Positions 1 to 23,728 of a DNA stretch of 48,817 bases are shown one piece after another (within the stretch, counting starts at the first letter, position 1; every line of letters begins with the position of its first letter). Both the position numbers and the translations under genes were made by a program. The DNA comes from a bacterium. GTDB taxonomy: Bacteria > Patescibacteriota > Microgenomatia > UBA1400 > PJMF01. The stretch is from the NCBI GenBank assembly GCA_030539095.1, contig JAUNST010000002.1, positions 1 through 48,817 on the forward strand. Direction: 5' to 3'. Below the pieces are notes generated by a model. It was not told the DNA's origin and searched no databases. It saw only the letters and a list, made by a program, of their open reading frames with translations.

Positions 1-177
1 TACTCTGGCTACTCAAATGCTGGTGGAGGGCTCTACCTTCAGGGCAGCAACGGCATCTTTTGGTCTAGTACGAGCAACAGTGCTGTCAGCGCTCGTCGGC
101 TGTACTTCAATTCTACTGCTGCTAGCCCGTCGAGCAACAACGGCAAGTTCTACGGATTCACAGTCCGCTGTCTCTAA
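1..177 (+). CDS. Possible 3' end of a FISUMP-domain protein gene (5' part off-window); module M1
   Basis: Frame 1 is open from the window edge. It reads YSGYSNAGGGLYLQGSNGIFWSSTSNSAVSARRLYFNSTAASPSSNNGKFYGFTVRCL, with stop TAA at 175-177. Confidence 0.5.
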   Translation, partial: YSGYSNAGGGLYLQGSNGIFWSSTSNSAVSARRLYFNSTAASPSSNNGKFYGFTVRCL

Positions 178-209
178 AACTGAAAACACGTTTGCCTGTA
201 AAAGCGTAA

Positions 210-413
210 AACTCTAGCTTCCTGGGTCTCTATTCTGGTGCTTCTCTTTCTTCTGGAGAGCTTATTAATCAGAGTGGCTATGGCGGATCATGGTCCAGCA
301 CAATTAGTAGCGTTGTTGACGCCCACAGATTGGTGTTCAACTCCACTGCTGTTAATCAGCTGGGCAACTATAGCAAATTCTTCGGCTTTCCAGTCCGCTG
401 TCTCCAAAACTGA
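210..413 (+). pseudogene. Start-less FISUMP-like cassette M2
   Basis: Frame 3 is open only between TAA 207-209 and TGA 411-413. No ATG or RBS. Ends ...KFFGFPVRCLQN. Confidence 0.45.
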
Positions 414-441
414 AAATTTTATTTGCTCAAAAGAGCGTTAA

Positions 442-795
442 GCCCTCGGTTTTCTGGGTCTCTACTCTGGTAGTTCCAATGCTGTCGGAGGACTTGGAAA
501 CCAAGGTGATTATGGTCTTTTCTGGTCTAGTACAGACCTTAGTGTTACCAGCGCTCGTAGGCTAAATTTTGGTCCTACTACTGTTAATCCAACAAACTAT
601 AGCAATAAGTTTGGCGGTTTTGTAGTCCGCTGTCTCAAAACTGAAACAACTATTTGCCCGTTAAGGCGTAAAACTCTAGCTTCCTGGGTCTCTACTCTGG
701 TCGTTCCTTTACCACTGGAGATCTTGGCACTCAGGGCGGCGGCGGCTACTTTTGGTCCAGTACGGGCTACAGTGCTGTCTACGCTCGTACTCTGA
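442..795 (+). pseudogene. Start-less FISUMP-like cassette M3 (module ends about 636; reads on out of register into M4)
   Basis: Frame 1 is open after TAA 439-441. A 1-nt deletion (ctc-aaa instead of ctc-c-aaa) removes the module stop, so the frame runs on to TGA 793-795. Confidence 0.45.
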
Positions 796-875
796 ACTTC
801 AATTCTACTGCTGCTAACCCGGCGGGCAACAACAGCAAGTTCTACGGCTTCACAGTCCGCTGTCTCCAAAACTGA
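672..875 (+). pseudogene. Start-less FISUMP-like cassette M4
   Basis: Frame 3 is open between TAA 669-671 and TGA 873-875. No ATG. Ends ...KFYGFTVRCLQN. Aligns without indels to M1. Confidence 0.45.
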
Positions 876-878
876 AAG

Positions 879-2873
879 TTACGAACGCAAAAAAACTTCT
901 AAATCTAAGTCGCCGTTGAGCGCCGCGCTCACGTCTTCGTCTGGAACGAAGCGGCGCTCATGGTTTTCCGGTTCTACGCGCGCGCGAAAATCTTGGCGGC
1001 GCGCGCGCCTCGGTTGCCACGGCGTCACTTGCTCTGGTACATATTCATCTAAACGTTCTATCTCAAGTAACTTGTCATCTAAATCATCTAAAAAACGACT
1101 GCGACAACTCATCGTAGTGACGCCATATTGCCACCGTCGTCTGGCACAAGTGAAATAGAGTTTTTCTTTAGCTCTGGTAATCCCGACGTAACACAAGCGT
1201 CGCTCTTCGCTTAATTGAGCGGCGTCAAAAAGACTTCTCGAGTGAGGTAATAAATTCTCTTCCATGCCCACCATAAATACCGCTTTAAACTCCAAACCTT
1301 TAGCAGAATGTAAACTCATTAGCTGCACTTGATCTTGTTCTTGTTCGGCGCCAGCATCATCCGGCAAATAATCATCTTGAATAAGAGCAATATTCTCCAA
1401 AAAATTAAGCGTCTCATTAAATTGACTACTATGAGCAAGCAGCTCATTAATATTTTCCAATTTCACCGCTTCCTCTGGCTCAGTGGGATCATAAAGTTCG
1501 CGATATTTAGTTGCCTGCATAATTTCTTGCAAAAGTTTGAGCGGCGTTTCTTCTTTTTCTGTTTGTTCTTGATACTTTTCTCGCCAATCAAGATATTGAT
1601 TGTAGCGACGTTTGCCAATTTTCAACACTCGCTTAAGACTAACACTTTCTTTAGGATTGAAATAAAGACGTAAATAAGCAAGTAAATCTTTAATTTCTTT
1701 GCGCTCGTAAAATTTAAAACCGCCGACCAAACGATACGGCAAGCGATGCCTGGTAAGTGCTTCTTCAAAAGCACGCGATTGAGCATTAGTTCGATACAAA
1801 ATGGCGATTTCTTGTAAATTTAAGTTTTCATCATCGCGCAAACGTTTAATTTCACTCGCCACCCAATCAGCCTCTTGATTACCACTTTCCGCTTCCACCA
1901 ATTTAATTTTCATTGGCGTTTTATCGCTGGTCCACAAATTCAAAATTGGATGATCGGTGTTTTTTTGAATAATTTGCGTCGCTGCCGTCAAAATCGCTTG
2001 ATGAGAACGGTAATTTTGATCTAGGTGATAAGTGGTAACTTGTGGAAAATCTTTTTGAAAAGAGAGCATGTTGGTGTAATCGGCGCCGCGCCAAGCGTAA
2101 ATACTCTGACTAAAGTCACCGACGACAAATAAATTATTTTGCGGCGCACTGAGGATTTTACTCAATCGATATTGAACTTTATTTGTATCCTGATATTCAT
2201 CAATTAAAACAAACTGAATTTGCTCTTGATAAAAATTTCGGACATGACTATCTGCCTGCAAAAGCCTGAGCGTTTCGTTGAGCAAATCGTCAAAATCTAA
2301 AGCCGCTTCTCGTTTGAGCGCTCGTTGGTAAACTTCGTAAGCATTAGCCACAAACTCGCCGAAATCGCCGTAAGCCGCCTGGCGATAATCTTCTGGCGTT
2401 TGTAAAAAATTCTTGGCATTACTAATAGCTGCTTTAACCGCTTGCGGCTTATAATCCTTAGGATCCCAGCCATTATCTTTGTAAATTTGTTTCAGGAGTG
2501 CTAATTGATCATCGCTGTCGTAAATAGTGAAGTTGGGGTCGAGTTTGGCCGCCAAAGCATGACGCCGCAAAACGCGCGTGGCAAAACTGTGAAAAGTCCC
2601 AGAAAATGGTAAATCGTAATTAGTTAAATTGCGGACGCGACTTTTCATTTCTAAGGCAGCTTTATTGGTAAAAGTGACAAGCAAAATTTGCTCTGGACGC
2701 AAATTTTGCGTCGCCAGCAAATATGCCACGCGTTGTGTAAGAACTCGCGTTTTGCCAGAGCCGGCGCCAGCTAAAACCAGAGCTGGTCCAGTGGTGTGGA
2801 CGACGGCTTTTTTTTGCTTTTCGTTAAGCTGCTCAAGAAAATCTAAGTTCATACTCGCCTTATTTCTTTTCAC
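879..2873 (-). CDS. uvrD: UvrD/PcrA-family ATP-dependent DNA helicase
   Basis: 664-aa ORF with Walker A AGAGSGKT, DEYQDTN and QNYRS helicase motifs. Confidence 0.9.
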   Translation of the reverse strand: MKRNKASMNLDFLEQLNEKQKKAVVHTTGPALVLAGAGSGKTRVLTQRVAYLLATQNLRPEQILLVTFTNKAALEMKSRVRNLTNYDLPFSGTFHSFATRVLRRHALAAKLDPNFTIYDSDDQLALLKQIYKDNGWDPKDYKPQAVKAAISNAKNFLQTPEDYRQAAYGDFGEFVANAYEVYQRALKREAALDFDDLLNETLRLLQADSHVRNFYQEQIQFVLIDEYQDTNKVQYRLSKILSAPQNNLFVVGDFSQSIYAWRGADYTNMLSFQKDFPQVTTYHLDQNYRSHQAILTAATQIIQKNTDHPILNLWTSDKTPMKIKLVEAESGNQEADWVASEIKRLRDDENLNLQEIAILYRTNAQSRAFEEALTRHRLPYRLVGGFKFYERKEIKDLLAYLRLYFNPKESVSLKRVLKIGKRRYNQYLDWREKYQEQTEKEETPLKLLQEIMQATKYRELYDPTEPEEAVKLENINELLAHSSQFNETLNFLENIALIQDDYLPDDAGAEQEQDQVQLMSLHSAKGLEFKAVFMVGMEENLLPHSRSLFDAAQLSEERRLCYVGITRAKEKLYFTCARRRWQYGVTTMSCRSRFLDDLDDKLLEIERLDEYVPEQVTPWQPRRARRQDFRARVEPENHERRFVPDEDVSAALNGDLDLEVFLRS

Positions 2874-11627: not shown

Positions 11628-13415
11628 ACGCCGATAAGCGTCGTGCACTTGAGTGGCGGTACTTTCCCAAGTGAAATTCTTTTCCCAAGCCGCCGCCGCT
11701 TTTAGCCAAGCTTGTCGTTTATTGGCACTCCAATCAAGTATTTCTTCGACCTTAGTTGCAAAATCTCTGCCTTGTAAACTAGCTGAATAGAGTGCGTATT
11801 CGCCTGCTACTTCTGGCAGAGAAGAATTTGCTTGGCAAATAACTGGCGTTTGACAACGCATCGCTTCTAGAACGGGTAAGCCAAAGCCTTCATAAGACGA
11901 AGGCTGGATATAAGCAATGGCGCCGGTATACAAAGCACTTAATTCTTGATCGCTACTAACTTTGTTTAAGAAAGTAACTCGACTCTCAACTTCGCTCAAA
12001 TGCAGTTGTTCTTCGATGGCTTGCCATTCCGGGATGGCTTGTGGTTGGAAATTTTTGCCCACCATCACTAAATTAATTTTGTGAGGCAAAAATTTCAGAG
12101 CTTTGATTAGCTGACGTAAATTCTTATTAAAATTAATATCGCCAACATAGAGAATATAATTAGCAGGCAAATGGTATAAATTACGGACAGCTTTAATTTG
12201 TTCAGCAGAAGCTGGTTTCAAAGCCGGATTAGCAGCTAAATAAATTACTTTAATTTTTTTATTAGCAATATTAAATAAGTCATGAATATCTTTTTTGCTA
12301 GCTTGAGAATCCGTAAGAATTAAATTTGCGCGTTGCGCCTGCCATTTTTGCCACCATAAATTAACTTGGCCGCGCTTACCAACCGGAAAATCTTGCGGAA
12401 AACGTAATGGCGTTAAATCATGAATCGTTAAAACCACTTTTTTTTCTTTGGGTAAGTTTTTCAAGCTCCGGGTAAATAAATCAAAAAAAGTGTAATGAAC
12501 CAAATCTGCGTTGCGCGCGCGCTCGACAATCTCTAAGTCAGAAAAATTTTCTAAATAATCTTTAAGCCAAGCCGTATAGCGACCGATACCACGATGGGCC
12601 TGCTCTTTGGCATACGGGCTAGTAGGAAAAAAAACCCTCAGCTTTTTTTTTCCTTCAGCAGCAGCTGTTTCGCAATACTTTAAATAGGCCACGGCGTGAT
12701 GTGCACCACTAAAATAAGCAAAAAGAAAACCCGGCCAACCGTCAACATAGCCGCGATGACGCAAATATAAACTGCAAAAAGTGCTTAATGGCTTATGAAC
12801 TAAGTATTGCCAAGCGCTCCCAAAATTGCGCGGCAATTTACTTTCTGCAAGCTGCATAGCTTTAAAGCTGGTATAGGTATTAAATTTTTGTAAATAGCTG
12901 CTCAAATCCGGGTTGCCGTAGTGCATTAGGTGGCCTTCAGCTTCGCCCAATTTACCTTTCACCGCCATTTGTTCGTGCACATCTTTTTGCGGTAAAAAAG
13001 CTTGCCCGCGCCAGAACAAGCGAATCACTTTATCCGGATATTGACCACCTTTAGTTAGCCAACGGTTGAAAAACAAATTTTTACGAGCAATTTCCCAAGC
13101 AGCAATTTCTTTTGTTTGAGCTTCGTGCGTTTTGATAATAAAATTTCGTAATTGCTCATCAACCACTTCGTCTGCGTCGAGTTGCAAAATCAAATCACCT
13201 TTAGCTGCATCAATCGCCATTTGTTTATTAATATGAAAATTAGCTTTATTAGTTGTCTTGATGATTTTTGCCCCGAACTGTTTAGCGATTTCAGCAGTTT
13301 TATCTGTTGATTCACCGTCAACGATAATAATTTCGTCGGCAAAAGTATCTACGCTCGCCAGAGAGCGAGGCAACATTTTTTCTTCATTGTGGACGGCGTA
13401 AACTACGCTAATCAT
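11616..13415 (-). CDS. Bifunctional glycosyltransferase (N-terminal GT2 fused to C-terminal GT4/group-1)
   Basis: N-terminal half has VVYAVHNEE...DGESTD...LDADE. C-terminal half has ...SSYEGFGLPVLEAM. Confidence 0.8.
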   Translation of the reverse strand: MISVVYAVHNEEKMLPRSLASVDTFADEIIIVDGESTDKTAEIAKQFGAKIIKTTNKANFHINKQMAIDAAKGDLILQLDADEVVDEQLRNFIIKTHEAQTKEIAAWEIARKNLFFNRWLTKGGQYPDKVIRLFWRGQAFLPQKDVHEQMAVKGKLGEAEGHLMHYGNPDLSSYLQKFNTYTSFKAMQLAESKLPRNFGSAWQYLVHKPLSTFCSLYLRHRGYVDGWPGFLFAYFSGAHHAVAYLKYCETAAAEGKKKLRVFFPTSPYAKEQAHRGIGRYTAWLKDYLENFSDLEIVERARNADLVHYTFFDLFTRSLKNLPKEKKVVLTIHDLTPLRFPQDFPVGKRGQVNLWWQKWQAQRANLILTDSQASKKDIHDLFNIANKKIKVIYLAANPALKPASAEQIKAVRNLYHLPANYILYVGDINFNKNLRQLIKALKFLPHKINLVMVGKNFQPQAIPEWQAIEEQLHLSEVESRVTFLNKVSSDQELSALYTGAIAYIQPSSYEGFGLPVLEAMRCQTPVICQANSSLPEVAGEYALYSASLQGRDFATKVEEILDWSANKRQAWLKAAAAWEKNFTWESTATQVHDAYRRLFL

Positions 13416-23032: not shown

Positions 23033-23656
23033 CTAGTTAAAAGCCTTACGAATCACGCCCATCACTTTGCCAACCAAAGTGACTTTGCCAGCGTAAATCG
23101 GCATGGCTTCTTGATCGTAAACCGGCTCTAAGCGAAGCCTAGTGGCTTCGCGAAAATAACGCCGCATAACCGTTAAACCGTTGTCCAAAGTGGCAACAAC
23201 AATATTGCCTGGTTGTATTTCTTTATCTTCTTCCAAAACAATATAATCACCATCAGCCAAAAGTTCTTCTTTCAGTTCTTCCCCTTGCACTTGCAGTAAA
23301 AAAGCGCGTTTTTTGCCAGTAATTAGTTCTGGAGAAACGCGAAAGGTTTGATCGGTGCGTACATTGGGAGTAAGAGGCGCATTGGCGCTTAAAAAACCAG
23401 TAATTGGCAAATCAACACCTTCAGTTAGGCGGACAAAAGTGCGATTCATCAATTCGATTGAGCGATTTTTACCTTTGTTTCGTTTAATCAGGTTTTTTTC
23501 TTCCAAAGCGCGTAAATGTTCGTGAATAGTGGCCACCGAACTAACGTTCATGGCGTCAGCGATTTCTTTGAGCGTGGGTGCAAATTCATTGCGCTGAATA
23601 TACTGGCAAATATAGTCGTAAATTTGTTTCTGTTTTTTATAAAGAGTGATTGCCAC
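23033..23656 (-). CDS. lexA: LexA-like repressor with a degenerate S24 domain
   Basis: N-terminal wHTH (PTLKEIADAMNVSSVATIHEHLRALEEKNLI) and a C-terminal LexA-like beta domain. GTG start. Confidence 0.8.
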   Translation of the reverse strand: MAITLYKKQKQIYDYICQYIQRNEFAPTLKEIADAMNVSSVATIHEHLRALEEKNLIKRNKGKNRSIELMNRTFVRLTEGVDLPITGFLSANAPLTPNVRTDQTFRVSPELITGKKRAFLLQVQGEELKEELLADGDYIVLEEDKEIQPGNIVVATLDNGLTVMRRYFREATRLRLEPVYDQEAMPIYAGKVTLVGKVMGVIRKAFN

Positions 23657-23686
23657 GCATACCTTTCTTCATTAACCCTTAAAATT

Positions 23687-23728
23687 TATCTTAACAAAAG
23701 ATATAGACTACTTTCGTTTCTTTGTCAA
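23687..23728 (-). promoter_or_regulatory. Putative lexA promoter (TTGACA-N17-TATATC) with an overlapping palindrome TATCTT-N5-AAGATA
   Basis: On the minus strand, TTGACA is at 23728-23723 and TATATC at 23705-23700. The inverted repeat spans 23687-23703. Confidence 0.35.

Follow-up and report, generated by a model that had tools for sequence, protein, structure and literature searches.

Start-less FISUMP cassettes in dispersed rows of a Patescibacteriota genome as probable template-type units of a DGR

The window (the whole stretch of DNA that was analysed, 48,817 nt in length) is contig C17 in the assembly of a gut bacterium (G000; 800 kb, 59 contigs, 96% complete), and its position 1 is a contig end. 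Tandem Repeats Finder, run on the window, returned a tandem array at 39-877 with a period of 230, 3.6 copies and 63% matches. An earlier note on this DNA had described four 230-bp units there, with the marker AGTCCGCTGTCTC at 162, 392, 624 and 854, and we found the marker at precisely these positions. The array and its flank comprise the following features, for which the E-values refer to a 15-cassette profile.

1..180, plus strand: cassette M1, 5′-cut by the contig start; about 60 last FISUMP residues; 3′ block CAGTCCGCTGTCTCTAAAACTGAAA; profile E 1.5e-27.
175..218, plus strand: spacer 1; stops in 3/3 frames; weak hairpin at ~188-207, then TAAAAC and the lead-in to TTCCTGG.
219..410, plus strand: cassette M2; 64 codons in frame 3, start-less, with the TAA at 207-209 three codons 5′; profile E 9e-31.
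405..450, plus strand: spacer 2; hairpin TGCTC-AAAA-GAGCG at 424-437.
451..642, plus strand: cassette M3; 64 codons in frame 1, a frame that enters M4 out of register and runs to 795; profile E 4e-32.
637..680, plus strand: spacer 3; short hairpin TGCC-CGTTAA-GGCG at 655-668.
681..872, plus strand: cassette M4, which closes the array; 64 codons in frame 3; profile E 1.6e-32.
853..878, plus strand: 3′ block of M4, of the template type, CAGTCCGCTGTCTCCAAAACTGAAAG; same sequence as in the cassette next to the RT gene on contig C11.
879..2873, minus strand: UvrD/PcrA-like helicase gene (664 aa), a flank outside the system.

Because the window begins at a contig end, M1 is truncated by the assembly. 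It may or may not be the 3′ end of a real gene, as the earlier note suggested; its 3′ flank is of the cassette (template) type, unlike the real gene end on contig C47 described below. The translation of each unit is intact over 64-65 codons and follows the pattern FLGLYSG...FWSST...KF.GF.VRCL, and a spacer of about 50 nt shifts the following unit to another frame. The layout reported in the earlier note was largely reproduced: the frames of M1-M4 alternate (1, 3, 1, 3), in-frame stops lie at 207-209, 439-441 and 669-671, and the frame of M3 continues to a TGA at 793-795. Likewise, neither M3 nor M4 contains an in-frame ATG, GTG or TTG and in M2 the only candidates, TTG/GTG at 330/333, are far inside the unit, while the absence of an RBS agrees with the positions of the only GGAGG words in the array (25 and 487), both within cassette bodies. 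The description of spacers with stops in all frames applies to spacer 1 and had to be corrected for spacers 2 and 3, which have stops in two of the three frames. Only 3 nt separate the end of the array from the stop codon of the helicase gene, which is convergent; we found no cassettes at this site in relatives.

The units had been assigned to the C-terminal part of the FISUMP (C-type-lectin-like) domain; HMM searches agree with this assignment, which full-length relatives support. All four translations match TIGR02145 at positions 110-176 only, i.e. in its C-terminal third, and three of the four match PF09603 (M2 has no match). Against the FISUMP models the window cassettes gave E-values from 4e-4 to 1.5e-2, below the curated cut-offs, with 16-21 bits for TIGR02145 (cut-off 41.65); such scores, confined to positions 110-176, mean that a cassette is a piece of the domain and not a domain. 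The assignment is firm because relatives of the same genus (G002 and G003) end a full-length domain in the same 65 residues, within secreted proteins of 330-1400 aa (330-780 aa in G003). A whole G003 target scores 70.9 bits with TIGR02145 (cut-off 41.65) over positions 1-176, and the same 65 residues form its end. Judged by its sequence, the cassette coincides exactly with the template/variable-repeat part of the FISUMP surface proteins diversified by the relatives, i.e. with their last 65 residues. Diversity-generating retroelements (DGRs) are reverse-transcriptase (RT) systems by which surface proteins have their tips rewritten. Fib_succ_major/DUF1566-type C-terminal repeats are a recognised class of DGR targets (PMC5758913). 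The AlphaFold model of the G003 target had a mean pLDDT of 55.8, too low to serve for a fold search, and a sequence search of the PDB gave no relevant match.

The window array belongs to a family of at least 16 full cassettes in the genome, with additional fragments at contig ends, and a single RT gene is present:

C5: six cassettes in a row.
C20: four cassettes in a row.
C17 (the window): four cassettes.
C50: one cassette, flanked by a penicillin-binding-protein gene and secD.
C11: one cassette, at 158-352.
C15, C59 and C47: cassette fragments at contig ends.
C11:1207-2292: RT gene (L054); PF00078 E 1.6e-14 in the genome scan and 1.2e-13 with the protein; YVDD present.

On C11 the solitary cassette lies 100 nt 5′ of an Avd-like gene, whose 3′ end overlaps the start of the RT gene, so that the order is template, avd, RT. 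This is the sole RT of the genome, none being present within the 48-kb window; a classical DGR of G003 has an RT with 58% identity to it. In the Avd-like protein (240 aa), residues 128-228 cover positions 1-98 of the 104 in NF033474 (36.8 bits against a cut-off of 80; E 3.7e-9), and they also match PF22296 bAvd with 3e-4. The best NCBIfam match of the RT, in a collection that holds no DGR-RT model, was a group II intron RT, under its cut-off. The C11 cassette, the Avd-like gene and the RT gene are predicted to be the core of a DGR; since the latter two follow a cassette of the same kind as those in the window, we considered the system as a DGR rather than a pilS/vls recombination locus. The RT carries the motif VGNLTSH where 16 of 16 related DGR RTs carry IGNxxSQ, with the hallmark Gln changed to His in G000 alone, and the enzyme may be altered or inactive. 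The genome with the SH-motif RT is also the one with eroded, dispersed cassettes.

The order of elements within a unit is a short hairpin, about 20 nt leading into TTCCTGGGTCTCTACTCTGG, a body of 192-195 nt and a 3′ block CAGTCCGCTGTCTC(C)AAAACTGAAA. All cassettes share with the C11 cassette the 5′ hairpin flank (about 20 nt ahead of the body) and the 3′ block ending in CGCTGTCTC(C)AAAACTGAAA. The sole real gene end that was assembled, C47:1-106, also encodes RCLQN and its 3′ sequence is instead TGCTTGCAGAATCAGTAG, with six synonymous or nearby differences from the cassette 3′ block. In the Bordetella phage system, the target-side end differs from the template-side end in a comparable way.

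MAFFT alignments left the hairpin stems out of register and the pairs were therefore counted by a script, on nine hairpins picked for a 5+4+5 form at a fixed place, a selection that favours pairing. With this selection, 40/40 stem positions were paired in eight distinct spacers, five pairs were each changed on both sides, pairing was kept across five different stem sequences, and 0/5000 column shuffles matched the observed pairing; taken singly, the hairpins were not better than shuffles (combined p 0.03). Their stems are of 4-6 bp with mixed loops, and they are present 5′ of the first cassettes of the arrays and absent 3′ of the last ones. In phage DGRs, a GC-rich hairpin or cruciform with a GRNA loop is found 4-34 bp downstream of the variable repeat (PMC3240598, which describes the target-side requirements of the Bordetella phage DGR). 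No GC-rich hairpin with a GRNA loop downstream of the repeat was found in the cassette spacers, and the spacer hairpin is not this phage-type downstream target hairpin, because it stands 5′ of the first cassette and is missing after the last. Its position fits template-type units and not target-type units.

None of the three multi-cassette arrays is next to the RT gene. On C5 and on C20 the array opens with a non-coding leader and not with a gene, and there is no reading frame or start upstream of it; at C5 the junction between cassettes d and e is still in frame. Promoter and terminator scans of the arrays gave nothing above shuffles, and Rfam gave no match for four cassette loci. We also observed a convergent gene behind each array, with its stop codon 3-27 nt from the array end: the helicase gene in the window (873-881), a His-tailed cation-efflux-type gene beside a ribosomal protein operon (C20:~977-1006) and an unassigned ORF (C5:~12701-12729). 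Three cases are too few for proof, but they could point to insertion of the arrays at gene 3′ ends.

For the analysis of variation we built a codon alignment of 16 cassettes, with the templates of G003 and of G020 (another genus of the same family) as outsiders. Codons with AAY in the template of G003 or of G020 have a mean entropy of 1.37 bits at positions 1-2, vs 0.45 elsewhere (Mann-Whitney p 3e-7); in the cassettes, most of these codons end in C or T. The alignment marks the units as cassettes of a predicted DGR, with DGR-type variation at template-adenine codons. Over the 21 codons without template A we obtained pN 0.10 and pS 0.47 (pN/pS 0.22), so that the codons outside the mutagenised positions are evidently under purifying selection. 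No stop and no frameshift occurs in 16 cassettes that have diverged to a pS of about 0.5; the body lengths between fixed codons are 178 or 181 nt, i.e. they differ by 0 or 3 nt, while the spacers are of 50-65 nt and in any frame. What is left is selection on the coding content of each cassette, which untranslated DNA would experience only through transfer of that content into an expressed gene.

There are 34 sites that are A in the relatives' templates (0.88-1.00). At these sites the A is kept in 0.38-0.53 per cassette, with 0.44 for the C11 cassette; each cassette thus resembles a once-mutagenised copy, and the assembly is without a pristine template. At codons outside the mutagenised positions, identity to the C11 cassette is 0.94 for M4, 0.92 for M1 and 0.92 for C20a (a cassette of the C20 row), and the variable codons are widely different, from which it follows that the DGR or its ancestor once wrote these cassettes. 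A direct template-to-variable-region relation between the C11 cassette and those of the window was considered and dropped on the mismatch pattern. An age gradient along the arrays was likewise dropped after comparison of the cassettes with C11. No adenine-only pair was found among the G000 sequences, the best pairs having 40-45% of their mismatches at A, and the variable-region fragment on C47 has at least 11 non-A mismatches to every cassette. The missing template/variable-repeat pair may be a failure of the data, as the variable regions of G000 are largely unassembled.

Several searches were aimed at completing the locus and its targets. For a leftward extension of the window, no gene with exactly the same helicase product was on record and no metagenome matched the exact 23-nt junction word; the 18-nt conserved block matched, by chance, only three unrelated high-GC contigs. 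No contig end of the assembly overlaps with the window. Two nearly identical 5′ gene ends (C50:4213-4616 and C41:5330-5612) run off contig ends, and they encode a signal peptide and an N-terminal domain homologous to that of the G003 DGR targets; their central part, with the expected N-terminal half of the FISUMP domain, is found nowhere in the assembly. A target probe was made by joining the G000 N-terminal fragment, the middle of a G003 protein and M4. In the search for conspecific full-length targets, 40 FISUMP proteins were found, none with the G000 cassette type, and no conspecific contigs were found.

The cassette profile was used to search 40 relatives. G003 has a classical DGR with one Asn-rich template 5′ of avd-RT, and three gene ends compared with this single template differ at 22 template A and 1 other position, at 18 and 4, and at 19 and 8, respectively. 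In G020, contig C15 carries five tandem start-less cassettes directly 5′ of avd-RT. Between cassette 2 of this row and a gene end that is also on G020:C15 there are 10 mismatches at template A and 0 elsewhere over 181 nt, and between cassette 4 and a gene on G020:C4 there are 7 at template A and 0 elsewhere over 171 nt, while the cross pairings give 11-27 non-A mismatches. These adenine-only matches to two different genes mean that the cassettes of the row are alternative templates in G020. A second DGR of that genome (L026, G020:C7, 1695-2870) has one in-frame TAG in its RT frame; nevertheless, two variable regions match its template with differences of the adenine type.

A search for further loci related to the C11 RT returned one locus (L050; JAIRUA010000013.1, 700-3330, from a Dysgonamonadaceae MAG). 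Its RT shows 47% identity to that of C11, and three tandem cassettes lie between avd and this RT. One of its cassettes is pristine; the two others differ from it by 23 and 25 positions at A vs 11 and 9 elsewhere, and have lost nearly all their Asn codons. The contig is binned to Bacteroidota, which reflects either transfer between phyla or misbinning. We inspected 25 related DGR loci in total (22 in genomes of this order other than G000, the C11 locus and the MAG). In 16/25 one template stands beside one gene-borne variable repeat in a long frame, in 6/25 no repeat was found by the motif used, and 3/25 (G000, G020:C15 and L050) depart in cassette number; rows of at least three cassettes are therefore exceptional.

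Taking these data together, we consider it very probable that the units belong to a DGR and are not read in place. That they serve as donors through the RT is a narrower claim, for which we see the chances as even. For the window cassettes we infer transcription, use by the G000 RT and writing into G000 target genes. The most likely route would be copying of the cassette RNA by the RT with errors at adenines, followed by retrohoming. Cassettes that are never read in place would not need a start codon, and their frames would stay open and length-locked because the content is copied into expressed targets, where a stop or a frameshift is selected against. The arrays would then represent a dispersed library of alternative binding-tip scaffolds, each further mutable. 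The silent-donor logic of pilS/vls, one of two readings offered in the earlier note, is favoured as far as donation is concerned, by the coincidence of the variable codons with the relatives' AAY codons and by the templates of G020 for two genes; its mechanism has to be replaced by that of a DGR, and donor use of the genome's own cassettes is what we infer. A more elaborate form of this reading, which we think rather unlikely, is a two-tier system in a reduced genome, in which the DGR would write mutagenised copies into silent cassettes spread to several sites and later read from them, providing a heritable and selectable scaffold library, like germline V segments, atop point hypermutation.

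The cassettes could also be mere by-products of the DGR, an explanation that we regard as unlikely while giving it serious weight. Precisely, the template unit would have been duplicated and dispersed, its copies would have been overwritten, or created, by adenine-mutagenised cDNA, and the cassettes would be unexpressed recipients and never donors. Every cassette does look like the one-round product of a pristine template (A kept 0.38-0.53), and M4, M1 and C20a are close to C11 at other codons yet far apart at the variable ones; however, regular overwriting from one template would give identical non-A sites, at which the cassettes differ, and repeated overwriting was rejected because it would erase the synonymous differences. 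The two altered cassettes of L050, being nearly Asn-less, would be poor templates, and the assembly of G000 holds no cognate variable region, both of which agree with a recipient role. For unselected DNA, in contrast, a pS of about 0.5 with no stop or frameshift in 16 cassettes and a pN/pS of 0.22 are not expected. Furthermore, the cassettes carry a 3′ block of the kind that belongs to templates, and in the Bordetella phage such a block shields a repeat from the recipient role; about 4 kb of an 800-kb genome are kept in this form.

An RT-independent donor role, through RecA-type gene conversion or deletion into an expression locus according to the pilS/vls logic, appears improbable to us. In this case, in-frame exchange would occur via the conserved 5′ block (17-20 nt) and 3′ block (~25-35 nt). 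Promoter-less and start-less cassettes with conserved ends and intact frames, in arrays distant from the RT, are what such a route would need, and with the altered hallmark motif of the RT it could have replaced the enzymatic one; but these homology blocks are short, and no expression locus with matching flanks is assembled. Moreover, the variable codons show the NNY signature of adenine mutagenesis and not mosaic segments, a cassette of the same kind occupies the template position of an intact avd-RT pair, and the transfers from the G020 row are adenine-mutagenic, hence RT-made.

Decay of tandem duplicates, the other reading of the earlier note, would make the cassettes dead remains of a multi-repeat gene, and we judge it very improbable. 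The stops and frame changes in the spacers and the in-frame d-e junction of C5 would suit it, but unselected DNA so diverged would be full of stops, while the frames here are intact and length-locked despite high synonymous divergence (16 cassettes at a pS of about 0.5 with no stop or frameshift, lengths differing by 0 or 3 nt, pN/pS 0.22); in addition, the C5 and C20 arrays start with non-coding leaders and no gene, and the unit is the template/variable-repeat part, less than half a FISUMP domain and unable to fold alone. Hardly credible is one continuous protein, broken up by assembly errors or recoded by a ribosome hop from the cassette-end CTC to the CTC in the next GGT-CTC-TAC, since stops bound the units in the same way at each of 11 junctions, independently of one another, on three contigs (spacers of 50-65 nt), the C5 and C20 arrays have no upstream frame or start for translational entry, and the codon CTC at both edges of every spacer is explained by the conserved residues C-L and G-L. 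Ribosome hopping was dropped as a candidate on this lack of translational entry, and an alternative genetic code was dropped because the flanking helicase frame is intact under table 11.

The general DGR mechanism was worked out in the Bordetella phage BPP-1 (mtd-avd-TR-brt), and the Legionella LdtA system is a canonical DGR with a target of the FISUMP/DUF1566 type (CLec2, 'category d'). As in canonical DGRs, in G000 an Avd-like gene and then the RT gene follow a template-type repeat placed just 5′, the repeat codes for the variable tip at the C-terminus of a Fib_succ_major-type domain, and the variable codons are the AAY of related templates, with adenine-only differences in the relatives. 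Unlike canonical DGRs, which have one template, G000 has 16 or more template-type cassettes, and their rows of four to six are scattered through the chromosome at a distance from the RT; a pristine Asn-rich template is absent among them, the assembly contains no cognate variable region, and the RT motif is SH and not SQ.

DGRs with two or more templates have been counted in surveys (PMC6642488, PMC11661182), which give counts and not anatomy or use. G000 is like these in having several template-like repeats per RT, and in G020 two members of the row template two different genes. The G020 row lies inside the DGR locus and is Asn-rich with matched variable regions, whereas the G000 rows are dispersed, adenine-eroded and without a matching variable region, and next to the end of each row is the stop codon of a convergently transcribed neighbour. 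In the literature that we consulted we found no description of dispersed, adenine-eroded cassette rows away from the RT.

In the silent-cassette systems (Neisseria pilS/pilE, Borrelia vls and the chicken pseudo-V arrays), homologous recombination or gene conversion moves the sequence. The cassettes resemble them, as an analogy of logic only, in being promoter-less, start-less partial gene copies in tandem that are kept open via transfer, and differ from them in that G000 has an RT with an Avd partner and the signature of adenine mutagenesis.

In the textbook picture, a DGR has one template, one enzyme and one or few targets, and the template is protected and unchanging. Here, an 800-kb bacterium devotes about 4 kb to at least 16 template-type cassettes that are held open by selection, adenine-marked and far from the enzyme. 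If the cassettes are used, the choice of template would be a second heritable layer over hypermutation, with a bearing on surface-adhesin variation in episymbiotic bacteria and on engineered DGR mutagenesis, which could then sample several scaffolds in parallel. Unused cassettes, on the other hand, would document, as few cases do, that a DGR has written into its own templates, an event against which the canonical system is built. In practical terms, repeats of this kind break short-read assemblies, and repeat finders that require adenine-only differences overlook such cassettes.

Two minor observations concern the assembly itself. The search for overlaps between contig ends returned one pair only, C24 and C27, which overlap by exactly 55 nt and are probably joinable. 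A second small repeat family, formed by nested inverted repeats (GTCATCCTGAAC ... CCAGCAGATTTATAATTGTTTAAAATCTTGCTGG ... GATTTCAGGAC) and without a match in Rfam, occurs at the following sites:

C11:1-80.
C49:20920-20993.
C25:316-257.
C31:~233-258.
C43:~23600-23690.
C59:~60-130.

These copies are mostly near contig ends, and on C11 and C59 they lie directly 5′ of a cassette.
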